A stretch of DNA of 64,000 nt from Verrucomicrobiota bacterium. Lineage in GTDB: Bacteria; Verrucomicrobiota; Verrucomicrobiia; Opitutales; Opitutaceae. The first letter of the stretch is position 1. Every line of letters begins with the position of its first letter. A program made the translations under genes and the position numbers. This document shows, one piece after another, positions 48,319 to 63,620 of the stretch. The stretch is taken from assembly GCA_963205455.1 (NCBI GenBank), contig CAUJJL010000128.1, positions 14,685 to 78,684 on the forward strand. The letters are read 5' to 3'. The notes below the pieces were generated by a model. The model searched no databases. It was not told the DNA's origin and worked only from the letters and a program-made list of their open reading frames with translations.

Positions 48319-51300
48319 ATGACCCAAGCGACGAACTCTTGCTCACCCGGTCTCTCCACCATCGAAAACCCACAACAAAAATCAGGGGAAACGGCTGCTT
48401 CCTCCGGCCTCCGCGACAATCACAGCCGCGGCAAAGCCGGTGACTTCCTCCGCGTCGCTATTGCCCCCGGCTCCGAGCTTTCCTTCGTCTCGGCCTACTT
48501 CACCGTTCACGCCTATCAGGCCTTGCGCGACGAACTGGAAAGCGCCCGCAAGCTCCGTTTCCTGTTCGGCGAGCCCAAGTTCATCCGCAACATCGAGAAG
48601 GACGGCAAGCAATCCCGACAGTTCAAACTCGCCGAGAGCGGACTCTCGCTCGCCAACCAGCTCTCGCAAAAAAGTCTCGCGAAAGACTGCGCGGACTGGA
48701 TCACCCGGATGGTCGAAATCAAATCCATTGTCCGCGCCGGATTTCTTCACGGGAAGATGTATCACATCCAGGATGGCAAGGTGGCCCAAGCGCTCCTCGG
48801 CAGCTCGAATTTCACCGTCCCGGGCCTCGGACTGCAAGGCTCCGGTAACAACATCGAGTTGAATCTCATTGTTTCCGATGATCGCGACCGCCGCGATCTG
48901 CTCGATTGGTTCAATGCCCTGTGGAACGACACCTCGCTCACCAGCGATGTCAAGGATCAGGTGCTCCAGGAACTTGCTCGCCTCTATTCGAACCAGACGC
49001 CCGAGTTCATCTACTATCTTACGCTCTTTCATCTCTTCCGCCATTATCTCGACAAAGCGGACGATTCCGACAAAGCCCTCACCAAGACCGCGCTCCCTGA
49101 TACGGGCATCTGGAACGCGCTATTCTCCTTTCAGAAGGACGGAGCGAAGGCCGCCATCAACAAGATCCGCGCCACCAACGGCTGCATCCTCGCCGACAGC
49201 GTCGGCCTCGGCAAAACCTACACCGCGCTGGCCGTCATCAAATTCTTTGAGCTGCGCAATGAGCGTGTGCTCGTGCTCTGCCCGAAGAAGCTCCGCCGCA
49301 ATTGGACGGTCTATAAATCCAACAGCACGCTCAATCCTTTCGACAAGGATCGTTTCGGCTATCACGTCCTTTCCCACACCGACCTCGGTCGCGAGTCCGG
49401 CGAGGTGGATGGCCACGATCTGGCCAATTTCAACTGGGGTGCCTACGACCTCGTCGTCATCGACGAATCGCACAACTTCCGCAACAACAAGCAGGCCGTC
49501 CAGCGGCCGGGCGAACCAGAGAAACACAGCCGTTACCAGCGGCTCATGGAGGAGATCATCAAAAAAGGCCAGCGCACCAAAGTCCTCCTCCTCTCCGCCA
49601 CGCCGGTGAATAACCAGCTCGCCGACCTGCGCAACCAGATCTCCTTCATCGCCGGCGGCGATGTCACCCGTGACGCGGAGGCGGACGCCGCGTTTTCCCG
49701 CAACCTGGAGATCCCATCCGTCAAGGAGACCACTCGCATCGCCCAGGGCCACTTCACCACCTGGTCGAAGAAAAAACCGGAAGAACGCACCACCCGCGAC
49801 CTCCTCCAGAGTATCGGCGGCGATTTTTTCAAGCTGCTCGACGGCCTTAGCATCGCGCGCTCCCGCAGGCAGATCGCCACGTACTATAAGGACGAGATGA
49901 AACGCCTCGGCGGCTTTCCCAAACGCCCCGCGCCGGTGGCGATCCACCCGCCCATCGACCTCGCGGACAAGTTCCTGTCATTCGAAAAACTCGACGAGGA
50001 AATCGGCAAGCTCCGCCTCGCGCTCTACCACCCGACGAGTTTCCTGCGCGACGATCTGCCTGCGCAAGTCCGCGCCACTTATGAAGACAAGATCCTCGGA
50101 GGTTTCACCCAGGAGGGACGCGAACGCATCCTCATCGCCATGATGAAGGTGAACTTCCTCAAGCGCCTGGAAAGTTCCGTGGATTCGTTCCGCCTCACGC
50201 TCCACCGCACGATCGAGAAGATCAACACCCTCGAACAGCGCATCGCCGACTTCCAACTCCACGCGGAAAACCATCCGGAGATTGATTGGGACAACCTTAC
50301 TCCCGACGAAACCGACGACCCCGACGAGGAAACCCGGGACTTCACCATCGGCGGACGCCGCCGCATCCACCTCGCCCACCTCAAGCTCGAAGAATGGCTC
50401 CAGGCCGTGCGCCACGACCGCACCCAGCTCCAGTATCTCCACGAGAAAACCGAGAAGGTGAAACCCGAGCGCGACGCCAAGCTCGCCGAGCTGTGCGCCC
50501 GCATCGAATCAAAGGTCGCCAACCCCAGCATCAACGCCGACGCCAAGCCCATCCGCAAAGTCCTCATCTTCACCGCGTTCGCCGACACTGCGAAATACCT
50601 CCACGACCAGCTTGCCCCCTGGGCCAAGGACCACCTCGGCATTCACAGCGCGCTCATCGTCGGCGACGGGGGCAACCAGACCAGTCTCGGCAGTTCCGAT
50701 TTCGACGACATCCTCACCAACTTCTCACCCGTTTCCAAACGCCGCGCCGAGCAGCCGCGCTTCCCGCATGACGAGGAGATCGACCTCCTCATCGCCACCG
50801 ACTGCATTTCGGAGGGCCAGAACCTCCAGGACTGCGACCTGCTCATCAACTACGACATCCACTGGAACCCGGTCCGCATCATCCAGCGCTTCGGTCGCAT
50901 CGACCGCATCGGCTCCCGCAATGCCACCGTCCAGCTCGTCAACTTCTGGCCCGTCGCCGATCTCGACCGCTACCTCAACGTCAAGCACCGCGTCGAGGCC
51001 CGCATGGCCCTGGCCGACCTCGCCGCCACCCAGACCGACAACCTGCTCGATCCCCAGCAGCTCGACGACCTCATCAGACAGGACCTCCGCTTCCGCAACC
51101 ACCAGCTCAAGCGCCTGAAGGACGAAGTGCTCGACCTTGAGGACTTTTCCGACTCGCCCAGCCTCACCGACTTCTCGCTCGACGAGTTCCGCATCGATCT
51201 CCTCCAGTTCCTCGAAAGCCGCCGCGAGGAACTGGAATCCGCGCCGCTCGGTCTCTACGCGGTCGTTCCGCCAAAGGAGGATCATTGCGTCCGATCCCGC

Positions 51301-51768
51301 CCCGGCGCCCTTTTCTGCTTCCGCAGAGTGGACCAGACGCTCTCGTCAGGTTCCAGGGAAGAGCAGGCAGGATCGCCTGCACCACGCGACTCACAAAACC
51401 TCAACCCGCTCGCCCCGCATTTCCTGATCTACGTCCTGGACGACGGCACCGTCCGTTTCTCCTTCGTCCAGCCTAAGGAAACCCTGCTGCTCCTGCGTGG
51501 CCTTGCCGCCGGGCACCCCACCGCCTTCGAGAAGCTCTGCGATCTCTTCGACGCCCGCACCAAGGACGGCACCGACATGTCCCGCTACGACACCCTCGCG
51601 CGTAGCGCCCTGCGCTCCATCGAGGCCACCTTCCAGAAACGCGCCGCCGCCAGCCTGCTCTCCAGCCGCGGCGGCCTGCTGCCCACCACCGCCGAAACCC
51701 CCACCGCGAATGCGGATGACTGGGAACTCGTCACTTGGCTCGTCGTCTTATCCAGCAATACGGATTGA
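48319..51768 (+). CDS. PLD(HKD)-nuclease domain fused to SNF2/SF2 helicase (restriction-subunit-like)
   Basis: ORF 48121-51768 with a likely ATG at 48319. HKD motif FLHGKMYHIQDG..LLGSSNFT (HGK at 48748-48756). Helicase motifs ILADSVGLGKTYTA (I), DLVVIDESHNFRN (II), LLLSATPVNN (III), LLIATDCISEGQNLQDCDLLINYDIHWNPVRIIQRFGRIDRIGS (V/VI). Confidence 0.9.
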   Translation: MTQATNSCSPGLSTIENPQQKSGETAASSGLRDNHSRGKAGDFLRVAIAPGSELSFVSAYFTVHAYQALRDELESARKLRFLFGEPKFIRNIEKDGKQSRQFKLAESGLSLANQLSQKSLAKDCADWITRMVEIKSIVRAGFLHGKMYHIQDGKVAQALLGSSNFTVPGLGLQGSGNNIELNLIVSDDRDRRDLLDWFNALWNDTSLTSDVKDQVLQELARLYSNQTPEFIYYLTLFHLFRHYLDKADDSDKALTKTALPDTGIWNALFSFQKDGAKAAINKIRATNGCILADSVGLGKTYTALAVIKFFELRNERVLVLCPKKLRRNWTVYKSNSTLNPFDKDRFGYHVLSHTDLGRESGEVDGHDLANFNWGAYDLVVIDESHNFRNNKQAVQRPGEPEKHSRYQRLMEEIIKKGQRTKVLLLSATPVNNQLADLRNQISFIAGGDVTRDAEADAAFSRNLEIPSVKETTRIAQGHFTTWSKKKPEERTTRDLLQSIGGDFFKLLDGLSIARSRRQIATYYKDEMKRLGGFPKRPAPVAIHPPIDLADKFLSFEKLDEEIGKLRLALYHPTSFLRDDLPAQVRATYEDKILGGFTQEGRERILIAMMKVNFLKRLESSVDSFRLTLHRTIEKINTLEQRIADFQLHAENHPEIDWDNLTPDETDDPDEETRDFTIGGRRRIHLAHLKLEEWLQAVRHDRTQLQYLHEKTEKVKPERDAKLAELCARIESKVANPSINADAKPIRKVLIFTAFADTAKYLHDQLAPWAKDHLGIHSALIVGDGGNQTSLGSSDFDDILTNFSPVSKRRAEQPRFPHDEEIDLLIATDCISEGQNLQDCDLLINYDIHWNPVRIIQRFGRIDRIGSRNATVQLVNFWPVADLDRYLNVKHRVEARMALADLAATQTDNLLDPQQLDDLIRQDLRFRNHQLKRLKDEVLDLEDFSDSPSLTDFSLDEFRIDLLQFLESRREELESAPLGLYAVVPPKEDHCVRSRPGALFCFRRVDQTLSSGSREEQAGSPAPRDSQNLNPLAPHFLIYVLDDGTVRFSFVQPKETLLLLRGLAAGHPTAFEKLCDLFDARTKDGTDMSRYDTLARSALRSIEATFQKRAAASLLSSRGGLLPTTAETPTANADDWELVTWLVVLSSNTD

Positions 51769-51798: not shown

Positions 51799-52077
51799 AT
51801 GAAAACAACCATCGATATTCCCGAGCCGCTTTATAAAAGGGCAAAGATCCGTGCCGTGGAGCGGGGCCAGACGCTCAAACAGCTTGTCCTGATTTCCCTA
51901 GAGCGCGAGCTGGAGGCACCTGAAACTGTCACAGAGGCTCCGACCTCCTACTGGGCCAATCGCAAGCTGCGTCCCGGATACAAAGCCGCGCTCCAGGCCG
52001 GAGCCTTTTCCGGGGGAACGGATTCCACAACCATCATTTCAGAGGATCGCGCTTCGCGGGATGAAGCTCTACTTTGA
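51799..52077 (+). CDS. vapB: Type II antitoxin, VapB-like
   Basis: 92 aa beginning MKTTIDIPEPLYKRAKIRAVERGQTLKQLVLISLEREL. Overlaps the PIN gene by 17 nt. Confidence 0.7.
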   Translation: MKTTIDIPEPLYKRAKIRAVERGQTLKQLVLISLERELEAPETVTEAPTSYWANRKLRPGYKAALQAGAFSGGTDSTTIISEDRASRDEALL

Positions 52078-52513
52078 TTCCAGCTACTTATTTCGCGTTT
52101 ATTCGTGCGAGCCGGGGCATGAAGCCGTGAAAGAGCTGCTTGTTCGGTGCACGGGACTCTTTTCAGCCTGGCACGCCCGCGCAGAATTCTCAGCCATTGT
52201 TTTGCGAAAGCGGCGGGAAGGTAGGGACTCCCCGGAAGATCTCTTTGAGTTGCATGAGCAGTTCCTGGACGAATGTCGCAGCGGGCAGGTGCAGCTGCTG
52301 CCTTTGACGGAGAACGTGTTTCAAGCCATCGAATCCGCGCTGCGCAGCGCTCCCGGCACGACATTTCTCCGGGCTGCGGATGCGATGCACCTCGCCTGTG
52401 CCGCCCAGCACGGCTTCACCGAAGTCTATTCCAATGACCGCCATTTCCTCGCCGCCGCCCCGCTCTTCGGGCTGAAGGGAATCAACATCCTTGGAAAAGA
52501 CGATCCTCAATGA
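52061..52513 (+). CDS. vapC: PIN-domain toxin, VapC-like
   Basis: 150 aa. N-terminal acidic residue in MKLYFDSSYL and C-terminal ..AADAMHLACA..VYSNDRHF, typical of PIN ribonucleases. Confidence 0.8.
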   Translation: MKLYFDSSYLFRVYSCEPGHEAVKELLVRCTGLFSAWHARAEFSAIVLRKRREGRDSPEDLFELHEQFLDECRSGQVQLLPLTENVFQAIESALRSAPGTTFLRAADAMHLACAAQHGFTEVYSNDRHFLAAAPLFGLKGINILGKDDPQ

Positions 52514-52587: not shown

Positions 52588-52605
52588 AAGGATGAAGGAT
52601 GAAGG
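52588..52605. repeat. Left arm of an 18-bp perfect inverted repeat bracketing the four-helix-bundle gene
   Basis: aaggatgaaggatgaagg. Its reverse complement is identical to 52953-52970. It is embedded in a purine-rich GAAGG tract (52565-52610). Confidence 0.9.
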
Positions 52606-52618
52606 AAATGCCGGCCTG

Positions 52619-52951
52619 ATGGAGCGGACGACGGAGTTTGCGCTTCGGATCGTGCGGATGTTTGTCGCGCTGCCGAAGACGGACGAGGCCCGCGTGCTTG
52701 GCAAACAGGTCCTGCGCTCCGGCACCTCCGTCGGCGCCAACTACCGGGAAGCCCGGCGCGCCCGCTCCAAGGGCGAGTTCGTCTCCAAGATCGGCGATTG
52801 CCTCACGGAACTCGACGAATCGAGCTACTGGCTCGAACTCCTCGTGCGCAGCGAAATCGTCCCGGAATCCAAACTCGCCTCCCTCCGGGACGAAAACCAC
52901 CAACTCCTCGCCATCCCCCCAACCATTTCAAAAAAGGCGAAAGGCCAATAA
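52619..52951 (+). CDS. Four-helix-bundle protein (23S rRNA intervening-sequence protein family)
   Basis: ORF 52592-52951 with a likely ATG at 52619. FALRIVRMFVALPKTDEARVLGKQVLRSGTSVGANYREARRARSKGEFVSKIGDCLTELDESSYWLELL matches the family consensus. Confidence 0.85.
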   Translation: MERTTEFALRIVRMFVALPKTDEARVLGKQVLRSGTSVGANYREARRARSKGEFVSKIGDCLTELDESSYWLELLVRSEIVPESKLASLRDENHQLLAIPPTISKKAKGQ

Positions 52952-52994: not shown

Positions 52995-55900
52995 ATGTCC
53001 GACCTCCGCAAAGCCATCCAATCCCGCCTCCAGGCCTTCACCACCCAGCCCCTGCGGCAGGCCTCGCTGGCCCTGCTCGACACCCTCGGCTACCGCTCGG
53101 AGCGCTCCCTGCCCATCGATACGTTGACGGCGCTTCAAGAGCAGCTCGATCCCGGCCATCTCCTCCGCGAGGAAAACGCCCACCTTTCCCTCTGGAAATC
53201 CGTTCACCTCCTTTTCCAGCTCACCAAATCCGAACTTGCCCCTTCCGCCGGCAACGATCTGGGTTTGAGCCTTGAATCCCCTTTCGAGCTTCGCCGCGAT
53301 GGCAAGGTCATCGAGTCCTACCTCTTCTTCGCGGTCGATCTCCATCCGCGCTCCGACGGCCAGCCCCACAACCGCGATATCTACGGCACCATCACCCGCG
53401 CCCTCAACCGCCTTGTCCCCCAGCCGGTGCTTGTGCTCTTTCGCGAGGATTCGCGCCTCTCCCTCGCCGTCATCAACCGCCGTCGCAACCTACGCGACGG
53501 CACCCGCGACGTGCTCACCCGCGTCTCCCTCATCCGCGACATCGACTCCCGCTCGCCCCACCGCGCCCACCTCGACCTGCTCCAGCGCTTTTCCCTGCCG
53601 TCCCTCTCCGCCGAGTCCGCCATCCGCACCTTTGCCGATCTCGATACCGCCTGGCAGAAAATCTTCTCCGTTCAGGAACTCAAGGACAGCTTCTACAAGT
53701 CCCTCGCCGCCTGGTTCCGCTGGGCCATCACGGAGATCCAGCTCGCACAGCTCCCCGACCAAACGCCGGACACCGCTAAAAACCGCGACCGCGCCACCCA
53801 GGAGTTCACCGTCCGCCTCATCTGCCGCACGCTCTTCACCTGGTTCCTCAAGGAAATGCGGCTCATCCCCGCCGAACTCCTCGAACTCTACGACACCGCC
53901 GAAACCCGCCGCGTCCTCACCAAAAACGGCGACTCCCGCGACTTCCTCGACGGCAACCACTACTACCGCGGCATCCTGCAAAACATCTTCTTCCAGTCCC
54001 TCAACCGCCCGATGGACCAGCGTCGGAAATCCGGCGCGGAAGCCGCCAACGACCGCGAGGTCATCGCGCCCGATCTCAAAAAGCTTGCCTACGTCGCCAA
54101 GCAGAACCTGCCCGAAACCTTCGACTACTCGCTCTTCGATCGCATTCCCTACCTCAATGGCGGCCTTTTCGACGCCCTGCCCGAGGACAACCTGAAATTC
54201 ACCCACGAGGAGGGCAACGCCTTCCGCGTGCCCAACAAGCTCTTCTACGCCCGCCGCGAGGACGGCTACACGCTCGCAGGCGAGGGGCGCCGCGCCGCCG
54301 CCCAGCCGATGGAAGGCCTCAACCGCATCTTCGACCGCTACCGCTTCACCGTCACCGAGAACACCCCGTTGGAAGAGGATGTCGCCCTCGATCCCGAACT
54401 CCTCGGCCTCGCCTTCGAAAACCTGCTCGCCGAGATTGATCCCGACGACGAGGCCGCCGCCCAGTCCGCCCGCAAGGCCTCCGGCTCCTACTACACCCCG
54501 CGCCGCATCGTGGACTACATGGTCAACGAGGCGCTCCACCTCCACCTCCGCACCGAGTTCGAGAAAGGCGGAGCCTCCTCCGCCGATCTCCAGCTCCTCA
54601 GCCAGCTCTGCTACGAACTCGATCCCCACGCCGATTTCTCGCCCATCGCCGCCCGTGTCGTGGATGTGCTGGATGCCGTGCGCGTGCTCGATCCCGCCTG
54701 CGGCTCCGGCGCCTTCCCCATGGGCATGCTCCACCGCATGGTCGGGCTGCTCCACCGCGTCGATCCCGACAACGAATACTGGAAACAGCGCCTGCTCGAC
54801 CGCCTGCCCGCCGCCATGCGCGACGACGCCCGCCGGGGCATGGAAGGCAAAAGCTACAACTACCTCCGCAAGCTCGGCCTCATCCAGAAAAACCTCTACG
54901 GCCTCGACATCCAGCCGCTCGCCGCCCTCATCGCCAAGCTGCGCTTCTTCCTCACCCTCGTCGTCGAGCAGGATGTCCACCTCAACGATCCCGCCCACAA
55001 CTACGGCCTGGCCTCGCTGCCCAATCTCGAAACCAACCTCCTCTGCGCCAATACCCTGGCCGATGCCGGCCACGGCCTGCTCAGCGGCCCCGTGCTCGCC
55101 GACCTCCGCCGCGCCCGCGAGGAATACTACCAGCCCGGCGCCACCCGCGACCGCCGCGACGCACTCGCCACCGCCATCGGGGAAAAACTCGCCACCCTCT
55201 TCCCCGGCTTCGCCGAAAAGACCAAGGGTGTGAAGCCCTCCGGGGCCACCCAGCTGGACCGCGAGAACATGCGCCGCCAGCAGGATGCCATCTGGCTCGC
55301 TGAGTGGTTCAAGCACGCCACCCTCGCCGCCCCCTTCTTCAATGTGGAAACCTTCTTCCCGGAGCTGGTTGATTCTTCATCCTTCCACCTTCATCCTTCA
55401 CCCTTCCACATCGTCATCGGCAATCCGCCCTACGGCGGCACCAAGATCGACGACGAGGTGAAGACCTCCCTCGGCCTCGGCTCCAAAGACCCCTACGGCG
55501 CCTTCATCGCCCGCTTCCTCGGCGATCCCTCGCGCCCCGCCCCGCTCGCCGAGGGCGGCGTGCTCGCCTACATCGTCAGCGACACCTTCATGACCATCAA
55601 GACGCACCGCCCGCTGCGCGGGCAGATGCTGCGGCACCGCGTCCACAAGATGATCCGCGTCGCCGGCGACACCTTCAAGGCCACCGTCAACTGCGCCGTC
55701 ATCCTCTGCCAGCGCGGCGCGGCCCCGGAGGCCCACACTTGCCAGATGGCCGACCTCACCAATGTCTCCATCTGGGACCAGCACGAGCGCTTCCTCCACC
55801 TGCTCTACCAAACCGAGGGCTTCGCCCGCCGCGCCAACGTCTCCAACCAGACTTACGCGATCTACCACTACAAACAAAACCTGATCCAAACCAACTCGAA

Positions 55901-57683
55901 CCTGCCCTTCTTCGTCGCCTCGCCGAAGCTGTTCGCACTGATGAATGATACCACCGCTCCGGTGCGGCATGAGACCATCGGGGGAAAACGCGTGCCCGTC
56001 CGCACGGTCACGCTCAATGGCAATGCGGTGCGCTTGGTGAAACTCGGGGACATCGCCGAGGTGAAAGTCGGCCTGCAAACCGGCGACAATGACGCCTACC
56101 TCTTTCAGAATCCCGATGCCCGAGGCTCCTATCGCTCCATCGAGGATTATCGTGAGTTTCTTCTCGCCGATGCTGACCTTGAACGAATCCGCTCGGATGA
56201 GAACCTCCGCATGGAGGTGATCCAGCACGGCATCTCAAAAGACGACCGGCAATCCCCACGTTACTTCGGCGGCAGATATATCGCGCATTATGATAAGGGT
56301 GGGGAGTCGGAAAGTGAAGACGGATGGATGCCGAATTACTTCGTTCCAACCAACTACTATATTGATTGGAGCGAATGGGCGGTGAACCGAATGAAGTCGC
56401 TCACAACGAGAACGAGAAACCGTGAACAAGGTAGAACAGGTGGTGATGATTCACTAGCCTCACGCTTTCAAAATGCCGATTCGTATTTTGTCGGAGGAAT
56501 AACGTTCTCGTCCCGTGGTGTATATGCGCCGACCTTTCGTCAAAATGCGGGTGCTTGCTATGACAAGGAAAGCAGCGGGGTTTTCGTAGGGGGAAATGTT
56601 GATAATGTGCTCGCGGTGGTCGCGTCCCGGTTTGCGAAACACCTCTTGAAAGGCTTTCTACAACAAACGGTCTCGATGGATGTGGATGCGCTAAAGGAAC
56701 TAGTCTTGCCTGACAGTATGCCTATGGCTGCCAGTCTTGTTGCTTCAATCATCGGAGTGCAGCGGACCAATCCCCGTTACGACTACGCCAGCAACGAGCA
56801 GCTGGAGATCGACCGACTCGTCTATGCCGCCTACGGCTTGAACGACGGCGACATCAAGGAGGTGGAGAACTGGTATGCCCGCCGCTATCCCAAACTGGCC
56901 GAGGCCCAGCGCCGCAACCTCGCCGCCAGGCTGGGCCGGACCGAGGAGCAGTTGCTCGACCGCCCGGTGCTCCACTTCTACTGCGACGAATCCTGCCACC
57001 TGCCCGCCGACGGCGAGCCGAACATGCTGCTCGGCCTGCTGGCCTGTCCGGCGGAGCGGGTCGCCGCCAGCCATGCCGCGCTGCGCGCCCTCGCCGCCGC
57101 CAGCGGCCTGGAACCCCACTTCGAGGCCAAGTGGACCAAGCTCTCGCCCGCCCGCCTGCCACACTACCTCGCCCTGCTCGACTGGTTCTTCGCCCCGGAG
57201 CAGGAGGCGCTGGCCTTCCGCGCCCTCGTCCTGCCGGACAAGGCCCGCCTCTACGCCGCGCTGCCCGCCACCGCCCGCGACCACCTCTACTACCGCCTCT
57301 ACTACCAGCTCCTGCGCGGCGCGGTGGAGCCCGAGAACCGCCACCGCATTTTCCTCGACACCAAGGACACCCGCGGCCGCGAAAAGGTCGCCAAACTGCG
57401 CGACCTCCTCCAGCGCGACGCCGGCGACAGCCTGCAAACCGCCCGGGCCATCCAGGACCTGCAGCTCGTCCGCTCCCACGAGATCGCCCTGCTCCAGCTC
57501 ACCGACCTCTTCCTCGGCGCCATCGCCTACGCCCGCCGCGGCTCCACATCCAGCCCCGCCAAACTCGCCTTCGTCCGCGCCCTCGAAGCAAGAATCGGCG
57601 CCTCCCTCACCGCCGACACCCCGCCCGGCAGCGCCAAATTCCTCATCGCCACCGAATACGACCAGGACGCCCTCTTGCTCTGA
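52995..57683 (+). CDS. PglX/MmeI/Eco57I-like N6-adenine DNA methyltransferase with TaqI_C-like specificity region, fused to a C-terminal DUF3800 domain
   Basis: ORF 52638-57683. The in-frame ATG at 52995 (MSDLRKAIQ..) follows the four-helix-bundle gene. Motifs IPYLNGGLFD, SGSYYTPRRIVDYMV, VLDPACGSGAFP (about 54684-54716), NLYGLDIQPLAALIAKLRFFL, VIGNPPYGG (NPPY at 55422-55433), GLQTGDNDAYLF, IDRLVYAAYGLNDGDIKEVE. From about 56964: VLHFYCDESCH ... ALLQLTDLFLGAIAY (DUF3800 hallmarks). Confidence 0.85.
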   Translation: MSDLRKAIQSRLQAFTTQPLRQASLALLDTLGYRSERSLPIDTLTALQEQLDPGHLLREENAHLSLWKSVHLLFQLTKSELAPSAGNDLGLSLESPFELRRDGKVIESYLFFAVDLHPRSDGQPHNRDIYGTITRALNRLVPQPVLVLFREDSRLSLAVINRRRNLRDGTRDVLTRVSLIRDIDSRSPHRAHLDLLQRFSLPSLSAESAIRTFADLDTAWQKIFSVQELKDSFYKSLAAWFRWAITEIQLAQLPDQTPDTAKNRDRATQEFTVRLICRTLFTWFLKEMRLIPAELLELYDTAETRRVLTKNGDSRDFLDGNHYYRGILQNIFFQSLNRPMDQRRKSGAEAANDREVIAPDLKKLAYVAKQNLPETFDYSLFDRIPYLNGGLFDALPEDNLKFTHEEGNAFRVPNKLFYARREDGYTLAGEGRRAAAQPMEGLNRIFDRYRFTVTENTPLEEDVALDPELLGLAFENLLAEIDPDDEAAAQSARKASGSYYTPRRIVDYMVNEALHLHLRTEFEKGGASSADLQLLSQLCYELDPHADFSPIAARVVDVLDAVRVLDPACGSGAFPMGMLHRMVGLLHRVDPDNEYWKQRLLDRLPAAMRDDARRGMEGKSYNYLRKLGLIQKNLYGLDIQPLAALIAKLRFFLTLVVEQDVHLNDPAHNYGLASLPNLETNLLCANTLADAGHGLLSGPVLADLRRAREEYYQPGATRDRRDALATAIGEKLATLFPGFAEKTKGVKPSGATQLDRENMRRQQDAIWLAEWFKHATLAAPFFNVETFFPELVDSSSFHLHPSPFHIVIGNPPYGGTKIDDEVKTSLGLGSKDPYGAFIARFLGDPSRPAPLAEGGVLAYIVSDTFMTIKTHRPLRGQMLRHRVHKMIRVAGDTFKATVNCAVILCQRGAAPEAHTCQMADLTNVSIWDQHERFLHLLYQTEGFARRANVSNQTYAIYHYKQNLIQTNSNLPFFVASPKLFALMNDTTAPVRHETIGGKRVPVRTVTLNGNAVRLVKLGDIAEVKVGLQTGDNDAYLFQNPDARGSYRSIEDYREFLLADADLERIRSDENLRMEVIQHGISKDDRQSPRYFGGRYIAHYDKGGESESEDGWMPNYFVPTNYYIDWSEWAVNRMKSLTTRTRNREQGRTGGDDSLASRFQNADSYFVGGITFSSRGVYAPTFRQNAGACYDKESSGVFVGGNVDNVLAVVASRFAKHLLKGFLQQTVSMDVDALKELVLPDSMPMAASLVASIIGVQRTNPRYDYASNEQLEIDRLVYAAYGLNDGDIKEVENWYARRYPKLAEAQRRNLAARLGRTEEQLLDRPVLHFYCDESCHLPADGEPNMLLGLLACPAERVAASHAALRALAAASGLEPHFEAKWTKLSPARLPHYLALLDWFFAPEQEALAFRALVLPDKARLYAALPATARDHLYYRLYYQLLRGAVEPENRHRIFLDTKDTRGREKVAKLRDLLQRDAGDSLQTARAIQDLQLVRSHEIALLQLTDLFLGAIAYARRGSTSSPAKLAFVRALEARIGASLTADTPPGSAKFLIATEYDQDALLL
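55374..55409 (+). repeat. In-frame CCTTC-rich tract (2 x CTTCATCCTTC) inside the methyltransferase, directly upstream of NPPY
   Basis: tcttcatccttccaccttcatccttcacccttccac encodes SSSFHLHPSPFH. It shares the 11-mer core with the right arm at 52954-52964 and is complementary to GAAGGATGAAG in the left arm. Confidence 0.8.
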
Positions 57684-57703: not shown

Positions 57704-58231
57704 ATGAGCGCGAACTTCCCCGACTGGCTGCCGAAAATCATCCCCTTCGATGGCGACTGGGACGACTACCTTGGACGACTCTACGCCATCTTCGAAGGTG
57801 ACTTCAAAAACACTTCCCTCGAATATGCCGGTCGCCGCGTCTGGTATGATTCCCGCCTCGGCGATGACAGTCGCCATGGCTTTGAGGAAGGGTTCTGGCA
57901 CCTCACCACGAAGGACGAAATCATCTACGACCAAGTCCGGAGAACGAAACGAAAGGAACGAGGCCCCGATTTCCGAAGGGCGGAGAGGCTCGCTTGGTGC
58001 CGCGCCGTCATCCAGCATGCCTCGGATCCGGCGGTGCTTTGCTGGGCCTACGAGGAGGAGTTTGGCCAGATGCGCGAATACCTCTGGCTCAAGGAGCATG
58101 ACTACGTGGTTATCCTCCGCCCGTGGCAGACCCGAAAATTTGGCACCGTGTGGATGATCACGACCGCCTACCACCTCGACTACCCCAACGCCAAAACCAA
58201 CCTGCTCTCGAAATATGAGGCCCGAAAATGA
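57704..58231 (+). CDS. Hypothetical protein (175 aa), no family recognised
   Basis: ORF starts 21 nt after the methyltransferase stop. Non-repetitive sequence (..DWDDYLGRLYAIFEGDF.., ..FWHLTTKDE.., ..WMITTAYHLDYPN..). Confidence 0.6.
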   Translation: MSANFPDWLPKIIPFDGDWDDYLGRLYAIFEGDFKNTSLEYAGRRVWYDSRLGDDSRHGFEEGFWHLTTKDEIIYDQVRRTKRKERGPDFRRAERLAWCRAVIQHASDPAVLCWAYEEEFGQMREYLWLKEHDYVVILRPWQTRKFGTVWMITTAYHLDYPNAKTNLLSKYEARK

Positions 58232-58233
58232 CA

Positions 58234-58253
58234 AACCCCGCCGTGGCGGGGTT
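58234..58253 (+). terminator. GC-rich hairpin after the 175-aa gene (terminator-like, no clear U-tract)
   Basis: aaccccgcc-gt-ggcggggtt, a 9-bp perfect complement located 3 nt after the stop codon. Confidence 0.4.
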
Positions 58254-58334
58254 CGATCTCCTGCTACACATGGCAGCTGAGCTGATGGAACCCTACGCCC
58301 GCCGTCCTCGTTTGCAAGGATTTATTTTTCCCCC

Positions 58335-58748
58335 ATGACCACCCGCCACTGGCTCATCAAGTTTGCGCCCTTCCGCACCTCGTGGGAGCAGATTGTCGCC
58401 CGCGGCACTTTCACCCCGCGCGGCATCCGCAGCCCGGAGGCGCGCAAGCACCTGCGCGCCATGCGTCTCGGCGATCCCGTCCTCTTCTACCGCAGCCAGC
58501 AGGATCAGGCCGTCGTCGGCCTCCTGGAAGTCACCCGCGAAGCCTACCCGGACCCCACCAGCGCCGACCCGCAATGGCTGACATGTGACTTCGCCCCCGC
58601 GGCTTCTTTTCCTTCCCCCGTCTCCCTGGAAACGATCAAGGCGACGCAGGCGCTCTCGGACCTTCCGCTCGTTCGCCGTCCCCGCCTTTCCGTGATGCCG
58701 TTGAGTGCCACCGCATTCACAATACTTCAAACACTCGCCCAAGCATGA
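58335..58748 (+). CDS. EVE (PUA-like, DUF55) domain protein
   Basis: 137 aa. RHWLIKFAP.., ..ARKHLRAMRLGDPVLFYRSQQDQAVVGLLEVTREAYPDPT.., ..PVSLETIK.., ..RRPRLSVMPL match the EVE layout. The stop overlaps the next start (ATGA). Confidence 0.85.
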   Translation: MTTRHWLIKFAPFRTSWEQIVARGTFTPRGIRSPEARKHLRAMRLGDPVLFYRSQQDQAVVGLLEVTREAYPDPTSADPQWLTCDFAPAASFPSPVSLETIKATQALSDLPLVRRPRLSVMPLSATAFTILQTLAQA

Positions 58749-59995
58749 CTCCACCTCTCTTCACCGCATTGTCCGCGCGCCGCATGAGCGGTCTGATTCG
58801 GGCTGCCCGGCAGCGCGTTTGTTATGCCGCGCCCGGCCTGCACGAGGAAACCGCTGCACTGGCAGCCCTGAAGTCGACGAGCTCGTCCATTCCCATCACG
58901 GTGAGTTTGGATTTCGACGAGCGTACGCTGCGCTTAGGCTACGGAAGTCTCCCGGCGGTGGAAACGCTGCGCGGCGCGGGCATCGAGCCGTCGCACTCGC
59001 CCGGATTCCGCAGCGCGGTGTTGATCGTGGACGATGCGGGTTGGGTCTTCACGCGGAAGGCTCTCTACCTCGAACCCGAACCGCAAAGCGATGAGACACC
59101 GAATGCCATCCGTCTGACTTCCGGCCAGGTGCGGGAAATCCTGCTGCGCCTTTCCCCCGCCGCGCGGGCAGAGGCCGTCGCCGCCGCAAGCACCCCCGAA
59201 GAAGCCGCGCGGCTGGAGTCCATCCCGCTGGAAACCTGCGAACTGCCGCTGGGCAAGGAGCAGTTCGCGCAGGTGAAGCAGGCCATCGAAGCCGCACCGC
59301 CGGTGAAGTTTGACGTGGCACGGCAGGTGCGAGTTTTCGAGCCCTACCTCCAATATGTGGAACTTTCGCTCACCGGTGCCGCCGTGCAGCGCCACCGAGT
59401 GCGCATTCCGAAATCACTGCAAAACCTCGGTGCCTCCAAAGACCTCGAAGGCAAGCTCAAGACGACGTTCGACCTCATTGAGAAAGGCAGCTCCCTTTCC
59501 TCCAAGGTGCTGGAAGACGAACTGAACGAGATCCGCAAAAACTTCATGCCGTCGCTCGGCAAGGACCACGGGAGGGTCGTCTTGAAAGCCGCCAAGCCAA
59601 CGCTGCTGGCGCGACTCGAGGAACTGCGCAAGAAGCTGGAGACGCATCAGAATAAGGTCGAAAGCGAGCTCCAGAAAAAGCTCGATGAATCGAAGAAGCA
59701 GGTTGTGGACTACTACTTGCCGCTCGCCCGCGCTAACCCGCCGGATGCTCTCGTCGGCTCGATGCTCAAGGTGACGGATAATGACATCAGGCAATGGATC
59801 GAGTCCGAGCTGTCCGACGTGTTTCCCGACGCGAAAGAACTGATTCACAAGATGACGCTGGAGGACCGCTATAAGGACGTGACCTTCGAGACACTAAACC
59901 GCGCCGATTTCCTCAAGTCAGTGAAGGCCGCCTTCCCGCGTATTGATTGGGACAAACCTTTCCACGATTTCAAGGCGGCAGGGGAACTGAAGTAA
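58745..59995 (+). CDS. Hypothetical protein (416 aa): N-terminal PLD-like scaffold without HxK, C-terminal K/E-rich coiled-coil-like region
   Basis: Translationally coupled to the EVE gene. The N-terminus ..LIRAARQRVCYAAPGL..IPITVSLDFDE..LRGAGIEPSHSPGFRSAVLIVDDAGWVFT resembles a PLD/NgoFVII-type fold with FRS where HxK is expected (pattern-level inference only). The C-terminus is LEELRKKLETHQNKVESELQKKLDESKKQ. Confidence 0.6.
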   Translation: MTPPLFTALSARRMSGLIRAARQRVCYAAPGLHEETAALAALKSTSSSIPITVSLDFDERTLRLGYGSLPAVETLRGAGIEPSHSPGFRSAVLIVDDAGWVFTRKALYLEPEPQSDETPNAIRLTSGQVREILLRLSPAARAEAVAAASTPEEAARLESIPLETCELPLGKEQFAQVKQAIEAAPPVKFDVARQVRVFEPYLQYVELSLTGAAVQRHRVRIPKSLQNLGASKDLEGKLKTTFDLIEKGSSLSSKVLEDELNEIRKNFMPSLGKDHGRVVLKAAKPTLLARLEELRKKLETHQNKVESELQKKLDESKKQVVDYYLPLARANPPDALVGSMLKVTDNDIRQWIESELSDVFPDAKELIHKMTLEDRYKDVTFETLNRADFLKSVKAAFPRIDWDKPFHDFKAAGELK

Positions 59996-60000
59996 GATGA

Positions 60001-60303
60001 CCGGAAACGCGTGTCCTTGTCGTGAAAGTGGAACGGAGGTCGAACGCGCTGGTGTATGAGCTGTATTTCCCGGAGGAGGTGAAGGGAAGTTTGAAGGAGG
60101 AAGGAGGAAGTTGGAAGGGGAGTCTGTTCGACCTGGTCGAGGCCGCCGGCCTGCCGGACGTGACCGCCCTGCCGGAGCCGGACTGCCTCCCGCGCCTGCG
60201 CCGGAAGTTCGAGGAACTCCACGACGGCGCCCACCCGCTGCGCCGCGCCCTCGGCCAGCTCCAAACCCTCGAAACCATCCGCATCATCGAAGGCAGGGCG
60301 TGA
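60001..60303 (+). pseudogene. 3' remnant resembling the C-terminus of an Eco57I/type IIG-like methyltransferase
   Basis: The frame opens right after the TGA at 59998. ..RSNALVYELYFPEEV.. parallels IDRLVYAAYGLNDGDIKEVE of the large methyltransferase. There is no N-terminal catalytic part. The tail (LRRKFEELHDGAHPLRRALGQLQTLETIRIIEGRA) lies in the 124-bp duplication. Confidence 0.4.
60073..60120 (+). repeat. In-frame GAAGG-rich tract inside the methyltransferase remnant
   Basis: gaggaggtgaagggaagtttgaaggaggaaggaggaagttggaagggg encodes EEVKGSLKEEGGSWKG. It has the same purine-strand flavour as the left arm of the four-helix-bundle cassette but is less exact. Confidence 0.6.
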
Positions 60304-60308
60304 ACACG
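60185..60308 (+). repeat. 124-bp direct repeat, copy A
   Basis: By my alignment it is identical to 61461-61584 except G at 60300 versus A at 61576. Confidence 0.85.
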
Positions 60309-61460
60309 CCCTTCCCATCGCCGTCGATGCCTCGATACGCCGGAAAACACGGCGCGCCGAGGATGACCGCCTTGCCAGCGCCGCAGGCGTTCCATACTTC
60401 AGTGCCAACACGCGTTCCAACCTCGGCCCATTCTTCAACGCCAACACACGATCCAGCCCCAGCCCTTTCATCAGCGCCAACGGCGCGCTCCAACCCCAGC
60501 CCAGGGCAACGCCCTGGGTATTCGGCACCCAAGACCATCCAAGCCCTGAAAGGGCGACCCAAGGCCTGTTCCAATCCCATGCACAACACCCGATCCCCCC
60601 TTGTTTCGGTGCGGGTCTTTCTGGACCGCCACGGCCTGGCCTGCACGAACGGTCTGTGGGGGGCTGAATCGCCCCTTCAGGGCTTGAAATGGTGGGTGAC
60701 CTATGTTCCCAGGGCGTTGCCCTGGGCTGGCATGATTCGCCCCGTCGGGGCTGAGTCCACGCCCATTCCTCAGCGCCAACGGCGCGCTTTAACCCTGGCC
60801 CAGGGCAACGCCCTAGGTCCACAACGGCGCGATCCAACCCCAGCCCGGGGCAAGGCCCTGGGTCCACAACGCCAAAATCGATCCTAGCCCTGAAGGGGCG
60901 ATTCAAACCATGCCCCAATCGCTCGCCCGCCTTTACGTCCATCTCATTTTCAGCACCAAGCACCGCGAACGCGTCATCACCGACGCCGTTCGTCCCTCCC
61001 TGCACGCCTACATGGCCAGGGTGCTGCAAAATTTTCGCTGCCCGCCCGTGCTCATCAACTCCGTCGAAGACCACATCCACATCCTCTTTGAACTGGGGCG
61101 CACCGTCTTCATCAGCCAGGCCGTCGAGGAGGCCAAAACCACCGCCTCGAAATGGATCAAGACCCAGGGGCCGGCCTTCGCCGGGTTCGCGTGGCAATCG
61201 GGCTACGGGGCCTTCTCCGTCAGCGAATCGAATGTATCGGCCGTGCGGGAATACATTGCCGGGCAGGCCGAACACCACCGGCACAAATCATTTCAGGAGG
61301 AATACCGGGCATTTCTCGAACGTCACGGCGTGGCTTTTGATGAACGGTATGTATGGGATTAGCCCGCCCCTTCAGGGCTTGAAATGGTGGGTGACCTATG
61401 TTCCCAGGGCGTTGCCCTGGGCTATCATGGGCCGCCCCTTTGGGGCTGGATCCATGCACC
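60309..61460. mobile_element. RAYT-like transposase plus REP/REPIN-type palindrome array inserted between the two 124-bp repeat copies
   Basis: At least 5 copies of the 19-nt hairpin CCCAGGGC-nnn-GCCCTGGG (60500-60518, 60708-60726, 60799-60817, 60844-60862 degenerate, 61403-61421). A 59-nt identical direct repeat lies at 60670-60728 and 61365-61423. A 19-nt perfect inverted repeat pairs 60666-60684 with 60886-60904. Confidence 0.8.
60910..61362 (+). CDS. IS200/IS605-family Y1 (HUH) transposase, REP-associated (RAYT)-like
   Basis: 150 aa. LYVHLIFSTKHRE, EDHIHILF (HUH), FAWQSGYGAFSVSESNVSAVREYIAGQAEHH. The ORF is bracketed by a 15-nt perfect inverted repeat, agccctgaaggggcg (60886-60900) and cgccccttcagggct (61365-61379). 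Confidence 0.85.
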   Translation: MPQSLARLYVHLIFSTKHRERVITDAVRPSLHAYMARVLQNFRCPPVLINSVEDHIHILFELGRTVFISQAVEEAKTTASKWIKTQGPAFAGFAWQSGYGAFSVSESNVSAVREYIAGQAEHHRHKSFQEEYRAFLERHGVAFDERYVWD

Positions 61461-61584
61461 GCCTCCCGCGCCTGCGCCGGAAGTTCGAGGAACTCCACGA
61501 CGGCGCCCACCCGCTGCGCCGCGCCCTCGGCCAGCTCCAAACCCTCGAAACCATCCGCATCATCGAAGGCAGGGCATGAACACG
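61461..61584 (+). repeat. 124-bp direct repeat, copy B (contains the start codon of the ArdC-like gene)
   Basis: See copy A. An ATG lies at 61576-61578, where copy A has GTG. Confidence 0.85.
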
Positions 61585-62442
61585 ATGGAAACCCAACCCG
61601 ATCTCTTCGCCGCACAGGATGAGGAAGTCGCTCGCTCCCTGCTGGACAAGTTGCTGGAAGACTCGAGGCTTTACCGAGCCAGCAAGGATTACCTTGAGCT
61701 GCTGGAGTTCACCAAGCGCCTGCGGAACTTCGCGCCCTTCAACGCCATGCTGCTCCATGTGCAGAAGCCCGGCCTGACCTACGCGGCTTCGGCCTACGAC
61801 TGGGAGTCGCGCTTCGGCCGCCGTCCGAAGGAGAACGCCCGCCCGCTGCTCATCCTTTGGCCATTCGGCCCGGTGGCGCTCGTGTATGACGTGCAGGAAA
61901 CCGAGGGGAAGGCACTGCCCCGGGACGTGGACAGCTTCTTTGCCCGTGGAGCCATCACCTCGGAACGGATTCCCGAGTTGATCAAAAAGATGGCACGTCG
62001 GAACATCGCCTGCGCCTGCTTCGACGGCGGGGATGCAAACGCAGGCTCCATCCGCGTTGTGAATCGTGCGACGAAGGAGGAAGACGCCTCGTATTCCATG
62101 CAGGTGAACCGGAATCACTCCGCGCCTGTTCAATTCGTCACCATCGCGCACGAACTGGCACACCTGTTTCTTGGCCACCTCGGCCCGGACAAGAATCTCA
62201 ACATCCCCGAGCGCCCGCGCCCCGACCATGTGCAGGAAGAACTGGAAGCCGAATCCGTCGCCTACCTCGTCTGCGCCCGCAACGGCGTGGAGTCGAAGTC
62301 ACAAACCTATCTGACAAAATTTGTGGAGAAAAACACGACCGTTGAGAAACTCGACATCTACCAGGTCATGCGCGCCGCCGGACAGATCGAAACCCTGCTT
62401 GGCCTCTCATCGCACACCCGTTACGAGAAGCCTCCCCGGTGA
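61576..62442 (+). CDS. HExxH zincin metallopeptidase-domain protein, ArdC-like (N-terminal ssDNA-binding-like region + C-terminal protease-like region)
   Basis: ORF 61384-62442, but the first 64 codons read through REP/duplicated DNA. Likely ATG at 61576 (MNTMETQPDLF..). ..FAPFNAMLLHVQKPGLTYAASAYDWESRFGRRPKENARPLLILWP.. resembles the ArdC N-domain. IAHELAHLFLGH plus QEELEAESVAYLVCARNGV resemble the ArdC-type protease motifs. Confidence 0.55.
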   Translation: MNTMETQPDLFAAQDEEVARSLLDKLLEDSRLYRASKDYLELLEFTKRLRNFAPFNAMLLHVQKPGLTYAASAYDWESRFGRRPKENARPLLILWPFGPVALVYDVQETEGKALPRDVDSFFARGAITSERIPELIKKMARRNIACACFDGGDANAGSIRVVNRATKEEDASYSMQVNRNHSAPVQFVTIAHELAHLFLGHLGPDKNLNIPERPRPDHVQEELEAESVAYLVCARNGVESKSQTYLTKFVEKNTTVEKLDIYQVMRAAGQIETLLGLSSHTRYEKPPR

Positions 62443-62629
62443 GGTGCCTTCCCGCACGCTTCATGCAATCCGCCGGACTCCACCCTCCCTCGACGCGGAC
62501 TCTCACTCCAGCGTGGACCGGCGCTTGGCGACCAGCGCCTTGAAGGCCGGGGGAATGATCCGGACATGGCGCAGCACCGCGCCCTTTGGCCAACACCCGG
62601 GCAGCAGAAATGCTCCGGGGTATTTTCTT

Positions 62630-63240
62630 TCACGGCGACGGCCAAATACCCTCTCGATCCAATCGCGTTAGAATGGCCTGCTGATGAACTCCGAACTTCG
62701 GTGCCATCTGCTCGGCGAATTTTGCGCGAATGTCTTCGGACTTCAGCCATGTCGGAAGGATCCTTCCGATTTGTGCGGCGAAGTCGTCGAAGTGTTCTCT
62801 GAGGCGTTCCACTGGAACCAGCAGCCGCCCCGCAAACTCGTTGGCATCCTGCTCCAATCCAAAACGCGCCTGATCCTCTGCTTTGAAGTGGCGCGCGAAT
62901 TGGTCGAACGACGCAAATTTCACGTTCGCCGCATAGTCACGGTGCAGGACGTAGTGACCGAGTTCGTGGGCGACCGTGAACCGTAGGCGGTTCTGTTTCC
63001 AGACCGGCCCCTTCTCCCAGAGAACATAGCTCTCGGCGTCTACATAGATGCCTTTGAAATCTGGCGTGAGAGCGGCATCGACGCGATACTTTGGAACAGG
63101 TCGTCGAAGGGGATGACGTCCATTTGGAGCGTCAGCTCCACCAGCGAAAAGACGTCCACCGGAAGCTCCGACCGCTTCGCGGCCAAGTATTTCGTGCGGA
63201 ATGCCTCCACCTCATCCCACACGTTGGATCGTCCGTTCAT
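62630..63240 (-). pseudogene. ImmA/IrrE-family (Peptidase_M78) metallopeptidase gene interrupted by a frameshift
   Basis: The ATG frame (63240 down to the TAG at 63040) gives MNGRSNVWDEVEAFRTKYL..DVIPFDDLFQS. The shifted frame continues ..KYRVDAALTPDFKGIYVDAESYVLWEKGPVWKQNRLRFTVAHELGHYVLHRD..ILTRLDREGIWPSP to 62630. Total length is 611 nt, not a multiple of 3. The shift is near 63085-63095. Confidence 0.7.
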
Positions 63241-63620
63241 TTGGTGGCTTTGCCGTCCGGGCTATGGAGCGAACGCACGTCCTCGATAAACTGCTTCAGT
63301 TGCGCGTCGTCGAGGTCCGCACCACGAGCGGCACGGAAAAAGGTCGGCAGCGCGGCCAAGACCTTCTCGTCATTGGCGATGTCAGAGGGGAGCTCCCGGC
63401 GAGACAGCGCGGCAGCATCGAGAAATCCGAGCTTCTCGCCGTCTTCCAATCCGAAGAACTCCGCCCACGCCTCTAGAACTGCGATGTCCTTCGGTACCGG
63501 ATTCACGTCGCGCTCCCACTTACTCCAGTTGCTGGGATCGACTCCCAATTCATCACTGCATTTCCGAAGGGTTAAGCCCTTGCGGATGCGATAGTTTTTA
63601 AGTTGTGCTCCAAAGGTCAT
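63237..63620 (-). CDS. XRE-family HTH transcriptional regulator
   Basis: 127 aa. LKNYRIRKGLTLRKCSDELGVDPSNWSKWERDVNPVP. The stop overlaps the ImmA start (ATGA). Confidence 0.85.
   Translation of the reverse strand: MTFGAQLKNYRIRKGLTLRKCSDELGVDPSNWSKWERDVNPVPKDIAVLEAWAEFFGLEDGEKLGFLDAAALSRRELPSDIANDEKVLAALPTFFRAARGADLDDAQLKQFIEDVRSLHSPDGKATK

Follow-up and report, generated by a model that had tools for sequence, protein, structure and literature searches.

Stand-alone EVE genes are known to end operons that encode an SNF2-nuclease and a methyltransferase (+DUF499), and they also occur near type I restriction-modification (R-M) genes; EVE has been predicted to add recognition of modified DNA to these systems (Bell et al. 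2020, PMC7641849). The characterized EVE domains bind 5-methylcytosine (5mC) and 5-hydroxymethylcytosine (5hmC) (PMC7897488, PMC7641849), and the similarity of EVE to YTH has been pointed out (PMC7641849). A type IIG-like methyltransferase with an adjacent gene for a phospholipase D (PLD)-SNF helicase was noted earlier (PMC9881135), and DUF3800, whose fold is RNase H-like and whose catalytic site is rearranged, has been recruited by type VII retrons and by a Cas12a2 branch and is linked to 11 noncoding RNA motifs (PMC7736814, PMC10910872, PMC5737381). We analyzed a stretch of 64,000 nucleotides from a Verrucomicrobiota bacterium (contig CAUJJL010000128.1, positions 14,685 to 78,684; hereafter the window) in which three genes at positions 57704–59995 encode a 175-amino-acid (aa) protein, an EVE domain protein and a 416-aa protein. 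A sequence-only reading had taken the first for an orphan, set apart by a GC hairpin from the other two, which it regarded as a translationally coupled pair that might sense DNA modification. In our best explanation, which we consider probable, these genes are the accessory tail of an operon built on a PLD-SNF2 protein and an Eco57I/PglX-like N6-methyladenine (m6A) methyltransferase, and the tail consists of two evolutionarily separate units, for which we propose a mechanism below. The features on which this explanation turns are as follows.

56973–57647, + strand: C-terminal DUF3800 domain of the methyltransferase fusion (PDC-M04A), a putative nuclease of RNase H-like type (PADLOC, Pfam)
57704–58231, + strand: open reading frame for the 175-aa protein (PDC-M04B; PADLOC match)
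58234–58253: GC-rich inverted repeat with an 8-bp stem and a 4-nt loop, in the 103-nt spacer between M04B and EVE
58335–58748, + strand: open reading frame for the EVE protein, 137 aa (Pfam EVE)
58745–59995, + strand: open reading frame for the 416-aa protein (homologue searches)

The three open reading frames were confirmed at these positions, all on the + strand, and because each has numerous homologues we regard them as real genes. Both the ATGA at 58745–58748, in which the EVE stop overlaps the start of the 416-aa gene, and the inverted repeat at 58234–58253, which reads AACCCCGC-cgtg-GCGGGGTT, were read directly in the sequence. The three genes form the 3′ part of a run of genes that share one orientation and start with the PLD-SNF2 gene, and the R-M or defence setting ascribed to them is supported. 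The hairpin does not set the 175-aa gene apart from the other two. It has no T-run on the + strand, and a terminator scan scored it on the − strand only; the 119-nt intergenic RNA between the 175-aa gene and EVE folds no better than shuffled sequence (z = −1.38). Nor is the spacer conserved, since related loci lack it and their M04B and EVE frames overlap or abut (as called genes in L083 and as stop-to-stop frames in L092, L094 and L104; surveyed loci are cited here by their L numbers). We therefore rejected the hairpin as an operon or module boundary.

The 175-aa protein proved to be no orphan, as it matches 12 PADLOC PDC-M04B models (best E 7.5e-40) and has 189 homologues. Its companion, PDC-M04A, is matched with E 2.1e-61 at residues 1446–1670 of the 1681-aa methyltransferase open reading frame, where the DE (YCDES) and QxxD (LQLTD) motifs of DUF3800, as described in PMC7736814, are present. 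Both PDC-M04 components are thus matched and adjacent, in A-then-B order, with the fused A ending 20 nt before B. PDC-M04 is a candidate two-gene system, and therefore the A component is here fused to the methyltransferase. A metagenome scan with the M04B alignment, in which neighbours were assigned by local profile searches, gave 80 loci, and DUF3800 lies directly upstream of M04B in essentially all of those that have upstream sequence. At L084 and L085 the DUF3800 and M04B genes sit between hsdS and hsdR without EVE, and other M04 pairs among the surveyed loci lie between the same two genes, again with no EVE. The AlphaFold2 model of the 175-aa protein is of high quality (predicted local distance difference test, pLDDT, 93.5; predicted template modelling score, pTM, 0.86) and found no match among PDB folds (best E 0.13); on this model, the fold may be an undescribed one. 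The protein also matches PHROG phrog_16230, annotated ‘replication protein’ (E 5e-11). No DUF3800-associated RNA motif was found in the window by Rfam, and a literature search for PDC-M04 returned nothing relevant.

The assignment of the EVE gene is secure. It scores 107.5 bits against Pfam PF01878 (cut-off 23), covering 142 of 145 profile positions, and the closest solved structure is the EVE protein 2gbs (E 3.2e-25), followed by 1zce (E 1.8e-22), 2eve (E 7.8e-14) and THYN1 3eop (E 2.4e-10). EVE lies directly 3′ of M04B in 20 of the 80 metagenomic loci, which are the closest relatives of the window; nine of these 20 show the methyltransferase::DUF3800 fusion and four have PLD-SNF2 further upstream. 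The same succession was found in three further loci. Where enough upstream sequence is available, all these loci have it behind a PLD-SNF2 and methyltransferase pair. L082 runs PLD-SNF2, methyltransferase::DUF3800 (1522 aa), M04B, EVE. At L083 the succession is the same, except that DUF3800 has a gene to itself and the stop of M04B overlaps the start of EVE, and L013 has a DUF3800 gene, a weak M04B homologue and then EVE (64% identical to that of the window). The window EVE is 55–64% identical to the M04B-following EVE proteins of these three loci, and the four proteins share 44–74% mutual identity. The gene that follows EVE differs from locus to locus, and the slot behind EVE appears to collect varied large defence-type genes. 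At L082 (9413–15829), for instance, the next gene encodes a 2138-aa NACHT/STAND NTPase. No homologue of the 416-aa protein was found in any of the 80 metagenomic M04B loci. The conserved partition is therefore DUF3800, the 175-aa protein and EVE on one side and the 416-aa gene on the other, the reverse of the earlier grouping, and across many unrelated bacteria DUF3800, M04B and EVE follow a PLD-SNF2/methyltransferase pair in this one order. No specific support emerged for the proposal that EVE keeps watch on m6A written by its neighbour, characterized EVE domains being readers of 5mC/5hmC (PMC7897488, PMC7641849); by analogy, an adenine-reading EVE would be possible.

In order to survey the 416-aa family we used a one-genome-per-species scan, which gave 67 loci other than the window; counts below are over 68, and neighbouring genes were clustered, annotated with Pfam and searched with local profiles. 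EVE is next to the 416 homologue in none of the 67, and adjoins it only in contigs identical to the window, that is, in this strain. At L013 EVE is 8 kb from the 416 homologue and beside DUF3800. Phylogenetic profiling of the pair, which the sequence-only reading had proposed as a check, thus found it recurring in no independent lineage surveyed. Close relatives of the 416-aa gene have something else in the place of EVE. At L089 (80%-identical 416 protein) the 3′ end of an L002-type methyltransferase gene overlaps the 416 start, with no EVE, and at L088 (90% identical) an 80-codon remnant of the end of such a methyltransferase does the same. A DNA alignment of the window with L088 is near-identical from the ATG of the 416-aa gene onward and unrelated before it. 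Judged from these alignments, the EVE/416 ATGA overlap is a recent recombination joint and not a conserved coupling. A further piece of the same kind of methyltransferase gene lies behind the 416-aa gene.

60022–60303, + strand: 3′-end remnant (~93 codons) of a second, L002-type methyltransferase gene (homology)

This remnant is 56–60% identical to the last 90 aa of the L002, L004 and L011 methyltransferases and 69% identical to that of L089, so that the L002-type 3′ end stands downstream of the 416-aa gene in the window and directly upstream of it in relatives. The locus thus combines, as a mosaic, parts of at least two PLD-SNF2/methyltransferase systems that are related to each other.

The 416-aa family is large. 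One search returned more than 1500 homologues and another at least 1149 clusters at 50% identity; most of the homologues listed are full length, at 400–430 aa. The best 120 are 60–99% identical to the window protein and come from Verrucomicrobiota, Nitrospirota and other sources, and the family is apparently evolving unusually slowly for an island gene. No family in Pfam, NCBIfam, PADLOC or PHROG describes it, and Pfam PLDc is absent even at E ≤ 1. Apolipoprotein and PA2171 coiled-coil-like matches were sub-threshold, and we treated them as noise from a long helix. Among the longer members of the family (up to 600 aa), none has a Pfam domain. The AlphaFold2 model (pLDDT 82.5, pTM 0.48) comprises an alpha/beta N-terminal domain of about residues 1–125 (58745–59119), a helical region and a conserved C-terminal part with a helix of ~50 residues (281–330), which is consistent with the coiled coil proposed earlier. 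A comparison by hhalign of the N-terminal domain with the C-terminal part gave no indication of internal duplication (probability <1%).

Nearly all of the top 50 Foldseek matches of this model in the PDB belong to the PLD superfamily, including Nuc, Zucchini, NucT, PLD2, phosphatidylserine synthase, the non-catalytic TrmBL2 and FAM83, with probability ~1.0, E 3e-3 to 9e-2 and a TM score of ~0.5 on the target. The model thus favours a PLD-like fold for the N-terminus. Matches in a library of viral structures were all weak (E ≥ 0.015); they were uncharacterized phage proteins, among them a DUF3150 protein, and PLD-like envelope proteins of poxviruses, and provide at most a lead for the C-terminal part. 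If the fold is right, the active site is dead. The earlier observation that FRS replaces HxK was borne out, the position being F88-R89-S90 in the window protein; across 106 diverse representatives the same positions read L/F-R-I/L, with HxK in none of the 106 and no His or Lys. R89 (99%), D96 (100%) and N120 (100%) are fixed in these representatives, so that of the PLD motif HxK(x)4D(x)6GSxN the family keeps only D96 and N120. A literature search for an inactive PLD accessory protein returned nothing relevant.

The genomic settings of the family are varied and largely of one character. Its loci span phyla including Verrucomicrobiota, Planctomycetota, Pseudomonadota and Desulfobacterota, and 50 of the 68 have restriction-type genes within ~9 kb. 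Type I hsdR/hsdM/hsdS genes are near the 416 homologue in ~30 loci, PLD-SNF2 with an Eco57I-type methyltransferase in L002, L004, L011, L039 and others, and ISP-like methyltransferases in L026, L053 and L059. A DUF1156 methyltransferase with DUF499 (Hma/BREX-related; BREX, bacteriophage exclusion) precedes the 416 homologue in L023, L025 and L063; at L048 it follows brxL of a BREX-1 system, and at L029 and L070 it comes straight after GmrSD. A 45%-identical protein, WP_039048211.1, annotated as hypothetical, is encoded between pglX and pglZ and overlaps both. The mobilisable Acinetobacter towneri plasmid on which this gene (L086, NZ_CP090385.1 31188–32444) lies encodes CBASS (cyclic-oligonucleotide-based antiphage signalling system) in addition to the complete BREX-1 operon that includes the gene. 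Of the 62 loci in which the preceding gene could be assessed, most have it on the strand of the 416 homologue; its identity varies, and its stop is often overlapped by the 416 start, as with a methyltransferase in L002 and L004, HsdR in L062 and PLD-SNF2 in L063. At L026 it encodes a dynamin-like protein with a PLD-like MIT_C domain. A P4-type integrase is just downstream in 14 loci, and DUF3987 or DUF927 primase-type genes are near in some. No homologue was found in the phage collection or in E. coli genomes, and two were found in the plasmid collection. Members of the family thus share the orientation of the gene that ends an ATP-dependent, methylation-based immune operon, and often overlap it; they can also stand alone.

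In Acetobacteraceae-type genomes, the gene directly upstream, with a 4-nt overlap, encodes an active-type 435-aa HKD nuclease in which HSKxxxxD...GSHN is intact (L053:1557–2864, L059:8691–10004, L073:7120–8427); it stands behind PLD-SNF2 and an ISP-like methyltransferase. From its motifs, this would be a gene pair of an active and a dead PLD protein.

The operon to which the tail belongs begins some way upstream, and its genes are the following.

48121–51768, + strand: PLD (HKD) nuclease-SNF2 helicase fusion, the core restriction component (Pfam PLDc_2, SNF2-rel_dom, Helicase_C)
51799–52513, + strand: VapB-like (92 aa) and PIN (150 aa) toxin-antitoxin pair (Pfam PIN, E 3.6e-13)
52592–52951, + strand: 23S rRNA-intervening-sequence-type four-helix-bundle protein, 119 aa (Pfam PF05635, E 4.8e-17)
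52995–57683, + strand: Eco57I/PglX-like N6-adenine DNA methyltransferase with C-terminal DUF3800 fusion, 1562 aa (Pfam Eco57I, DUF3800)

The PLD-SNF2 protein matches the PADLOC ‘HKD+Snf2’ model C3a139 (E 5.7e-113), and its translation holds an intact HKD motif (LHGKMYHIQD...GSSN); the true start is probably downstream of 48121, because homologues are ~1100–1125 aa long. The NPPY motif is intact in the methyltransferase, whose length of 1562 aa follows the gene called on L005, an identical contig from a metagenome (the full open reading frame has 1681 aa), and which is 55% identical, over its full length, to the fusion protein of L082. At the canonical loci (L002, L004, L082) the VapBC insert is missing, and the genes for the helicase and the methyltransferase abut or overlap. 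Next to the 90%-identical 416 homologue of L088, on its upstream side, lies a VapBC pair that shares 91% identity with the one in the window. Three named systems were considered for this core and rejected. As class 1 DISARM (defence island system associated with restriction-modification), its DrmD score was 150.5 bits against an NCBIfam cut-off of 610, and neither DrmA nor DrmB is encoded between 47.6 and 64 kb of the window. As BREX type 1, its PglX score was 70.6 against a cut-off of 500 bits, and PglZ, BrxC and BrxL are all missing from the island in the window. An Hma/DUF499-centred BREX-related system does not fit either, as the methyltransferase is Eco57I-type and not DUF1156 (COG1743), and there is no DUF499.

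We propose the following mechanism. The methyltransferase would mark self DNA, and PLD-SNF2 would translocate on unmarked DNA and cleave it; these two steps follow from established properties of the domain families. EVE would flip out and read a modified base, most likely a 5-substituted cytosine, and hypermodified phage DNA would thereby become a target for the DUF3800/M04B nuclease pair or for the core enzyme. The 416-aa protein would be a self-contained, non-enzymatic auxiliary whose dead PLD pocket binds nucleic-acid phosphate or a DNA-mimicking anti-restriction protein, which oligomerises via its long helix, and which backs up or guards the restriction system with which it is co-transcribed. 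Such a role is suggested because the family has no fixed partner, can stand alone and has no catalytic motif. It is also suggested because an invariant Arg/Asp/Asn cluster lies in the predicted PLD-type phosphate pocket and the helix suits oligomerisation, and because the systems with which the gene is co-transcribed, of five kinds, are all ATP-dependent and based on adenine methylation. That the family backs up or guards restriction systems is our best guess. A bolder version, which we regard as doubtful, would make it a new and widespread single-gene guard (of type I, ISP-like, PLD-SNF2, Hma and BREX systems) whose dead PLD pocket, for example, senses DNA-mimic or anti-restriction factors or the failure of restriction, and would separately make DUF3800-M04B-EVE a three-part modification-reading nuclease add-on for PLD-SNF2/methyltransferase systems.

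Several observations weigh against this explanation or parts of it. The architecture and the partition come from the data directly, and every functional step is one that we infer. The EVE and 416-aa genes do truly overlap and are co-oriented in this strain, so they may be co-expressed and may have acquired a functional link. The PLD assignment comes from a single AlphaFold2 model, with its pTM of 0.48, and Foldseek E values between 3e-3 and 9e-2. A profile search of PDB sequences with the 416-aa protein gave no PLD chain and nothing below E 0.8, and hhalign of the family against the active HKD domains of the same loci gave a probability of <1%. Of the earlier description of a dead PLD-like N-terminus, then, the structural likeness is supported, and no sequence profile method confirms it. 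The C-terminal 220 residues are without a fold assignment. Conservation at 60–80% identity across phyla is unusual for an immune sensor, and hints that the ligand is itself conserved, either cellular or a nucleic acid, and is not a phage target that evolves fast. Finally, the closest relatives on long contigs (80–82% identity) are surrounded by metabolic genes, and restriction genes are absent from their vicinity; the 80%-identical P0005 is among metabolic genes on many contigs, and P0003 adjoins a PDDEXK_3 gene. The link to restriction is therefore not obligatory.

Three other explanations were weighed against our own. EVE and the 416-aa protein could be a dedicated module, in which EVE reads a modified base (perhaps m6A) and signals to the 416-aa protein, which in turn regulates PLD-SNF2. 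The overlap and shared orientation in this strain would suit such a module, as would the occurrence of both proteins, separately, in PLD-SNF2/methyltransferase operons and the support for the PLD-like fold. However, the pair is found in 0 of the 67 other 416 genome loci and 0 of the 80 M04B loci, the methyltransferase 3′ end replaces EVE in the 90%- and 80%-identical relatives with the breakpoint at the ATG, the conserved neighbours of EVE are DUF3800 and M04B, and the characterized domains read 5mC/5hmC rather than m6A (PMC7897488). As a conserved module the pair is largely refuted, and we consider this explanation highly unlikely. The main rival concerns the 416-aa protein and the HKD nucleases. 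It has some appeal in this window, and we still judge it improbable. PLD-family nucleases such as Nuc are dimers that share one active site, normally built from two HKD domains, and the dead PLD protein could be a pseudo-subunit that pairs with the single HKD domain of PLD-SNF2, or with the 435-aa nuclease, and completes, inhibits or targets a composite site. The 416 homologue does come directly after HKD-bearing proteins in L002, L004, L011, L039 and L063 and after the active HKD nuclease in L053, L059 and L073, and the upstream gene in L026 carries the PLD-like MIT_C domain. Yet solitary copies exist, and most loci (~30 with type I genes, those with GmrSD, and the Acinetobacter BREX-1 with its Lon-type BrxL) are without a recognisable PLD protein, so that an idea attractive here fits the majority of hosts poorly.

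The 416 family might instead be a passenger of mobile islands, with a role in maintenance or recombination, for example, and none in immunity, that merely shares integrative hotspots with restriction genes. The P4-type integrases just downstream in 14 loci, the DUF3987 or DUF927 primase-type genes close by in some, the solitary copies, and a conservation and spread across phyla of the kind expected for a horizontally moving gene are all compatible with this. The 416 gene, however, sits inside operons with overlapping stops and starts, and not at island edges only; it lies between pglX and pglZ in one such operon, and behind hsdR or the methyltransferase gene in others. The phage collection yielded no homologue, the plasmid collection just two, and Pfam, the PDB profile search and Foldseek revealed no similarity to known recombination or partition proteins. 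We consider it quite unlikely that the family is such a passenger, and the accessory tail of two separate units, with the 416-aa protein as an auxiliary, is the explanation that we retain.

The rearranged DNA downstream of the 416-aa gene holds further signs of mobility.

60910–61362, + strand: IS200/Y1-type transposase (Pfam Y1_Tnp, E 3e-24)

A 127-nt direct repeat, 98% identical, lies on either side of this transposase gene (60182–60308 and 61458–61584) and duplicates the end of the methyltransferase remnant. The stop in the second copy overlaps the start, at ~61576, of a gene for an M78-peptidase-like protein. Several copies of the palindrome GCCCAGGGCAACGCCCTGGGC surround the transposase gene (60455–61447). 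Rfam Acido-Lenti-1 is matched at 61403–61447 (41.8 bits, gathering score 37) and at 60708–60752 (34.8 bits), which suggests that, at least here, this motif is a REP (repetitive extragenic palindromic)-like element tied to a RAYT (REP-associated tyrosine transposase)-type transposase. The remainder, 61576–63620, contains the IrrE/M78-peptidase-like gene (+ strand), a small open reading frame at 62630–62923 (− strand) and a gene for an HTH_19/XRE regulator at 63237–63620 (− strand), and could be another mobile or defence-related module. The region as a whole is a mosaic defence island.

These results re-sort an odd gene trio into two recurrent units. One is an EVE-extended PDC-M04 add-on tied to PLD-SNF2/methyltransferase systems, which is new and is a variant of a published theme. 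The other is a large, unnamed pseudo-PLD family, also new, inside at least five kinds of methylation-based defence operons. Restriction and BREX-type operons carry embedded back-up genes, PrrC in a type I locus and PARIS in BREX loci being examples, and working out the roles of such genes has repeatedly exposed new immune mechanisms. If the 416 family does guard or modulate restriction, as we infer, an unannotated gene that recurs across many R-M loci would have its explanation. The uncharacterized 416-aa family, with its putative mechanism, seems the lead most worth following, and members in cultured Limnohabitans, Roseicella and Rhodovarius strains, together with the one on the A. towneri plasmid, offer a tractable experimental handle.

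The 416 family resembles the auxiliary genes of R-M and BREX operons (BrxU/GmrSD and the effectors of PMC12839542) in being an extra gene co-transcribed inside the operon or at its end. Unlike it, those auxiliaries have effector domains that can be recognised (anticodon nuclease, GmrSD, Toprim or ABC ATPase). Its predicted N-terminal domain is also without the HxK pair, like the TrmBL2 C-terminal domain (5bpi), the FAM83 DUF1669 (5lzk) and MIT_C, and in the model it aligns structurally both with such non-catalytic PLD-like domains and with the active Nuc, Zucchini and NucT. It differs from TrmBL2, FAM83 and MIT_C in its partners, in its C-terminal architecture and in the invariant Arg in the middle of the motif, and has no detectable sequence relationship with them.

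The other unit is closest to PDC-M04, itself a candidate defence system, whose M04B model matches no solved fold. The 175-aa protein corresponds to B and the methyltransferase C-terminus to A, in the A-then-B order kept in ~80 other loci, whereas in the window an Eco57I-type methyltransferase of 1300 aa carries A as a fusion and EVE comes as an additional gene. The operon also resembles the EVE-SNF2-nuclease-COG1743-DUF499 operons (PMC7641849; Hma/BREX-related, PMC12839542), in which EVE likewise comes last in the operon, which also encodes an adenine methyltransferase and a helicase fused to a nuclease of the PLDc or PD-(D/E)xK type. Unlike those operons, the one in the window has an Eco57I/PglX-like methyltransferase in place of DUF1156/COG1743, lacks the DUF499 ATPase and places DUF3800 and M04B between the methyltransferase and EVE, and hosts of the window type are bacterial (including Verrucomicrobiota and Lentisphaerota) rather than archaeal. 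Finally, the core pair stands in the same order as in L002, L004 and L082 and is like the type IIG-like methyltransferase with PLD-SNF, or ‘HKD+Snf2’ (C3a139), pair; relative to that pair, the operon of the window is interrupted by VapBC and the intervening-sequence-type gene and is extended by three extra tail genes.

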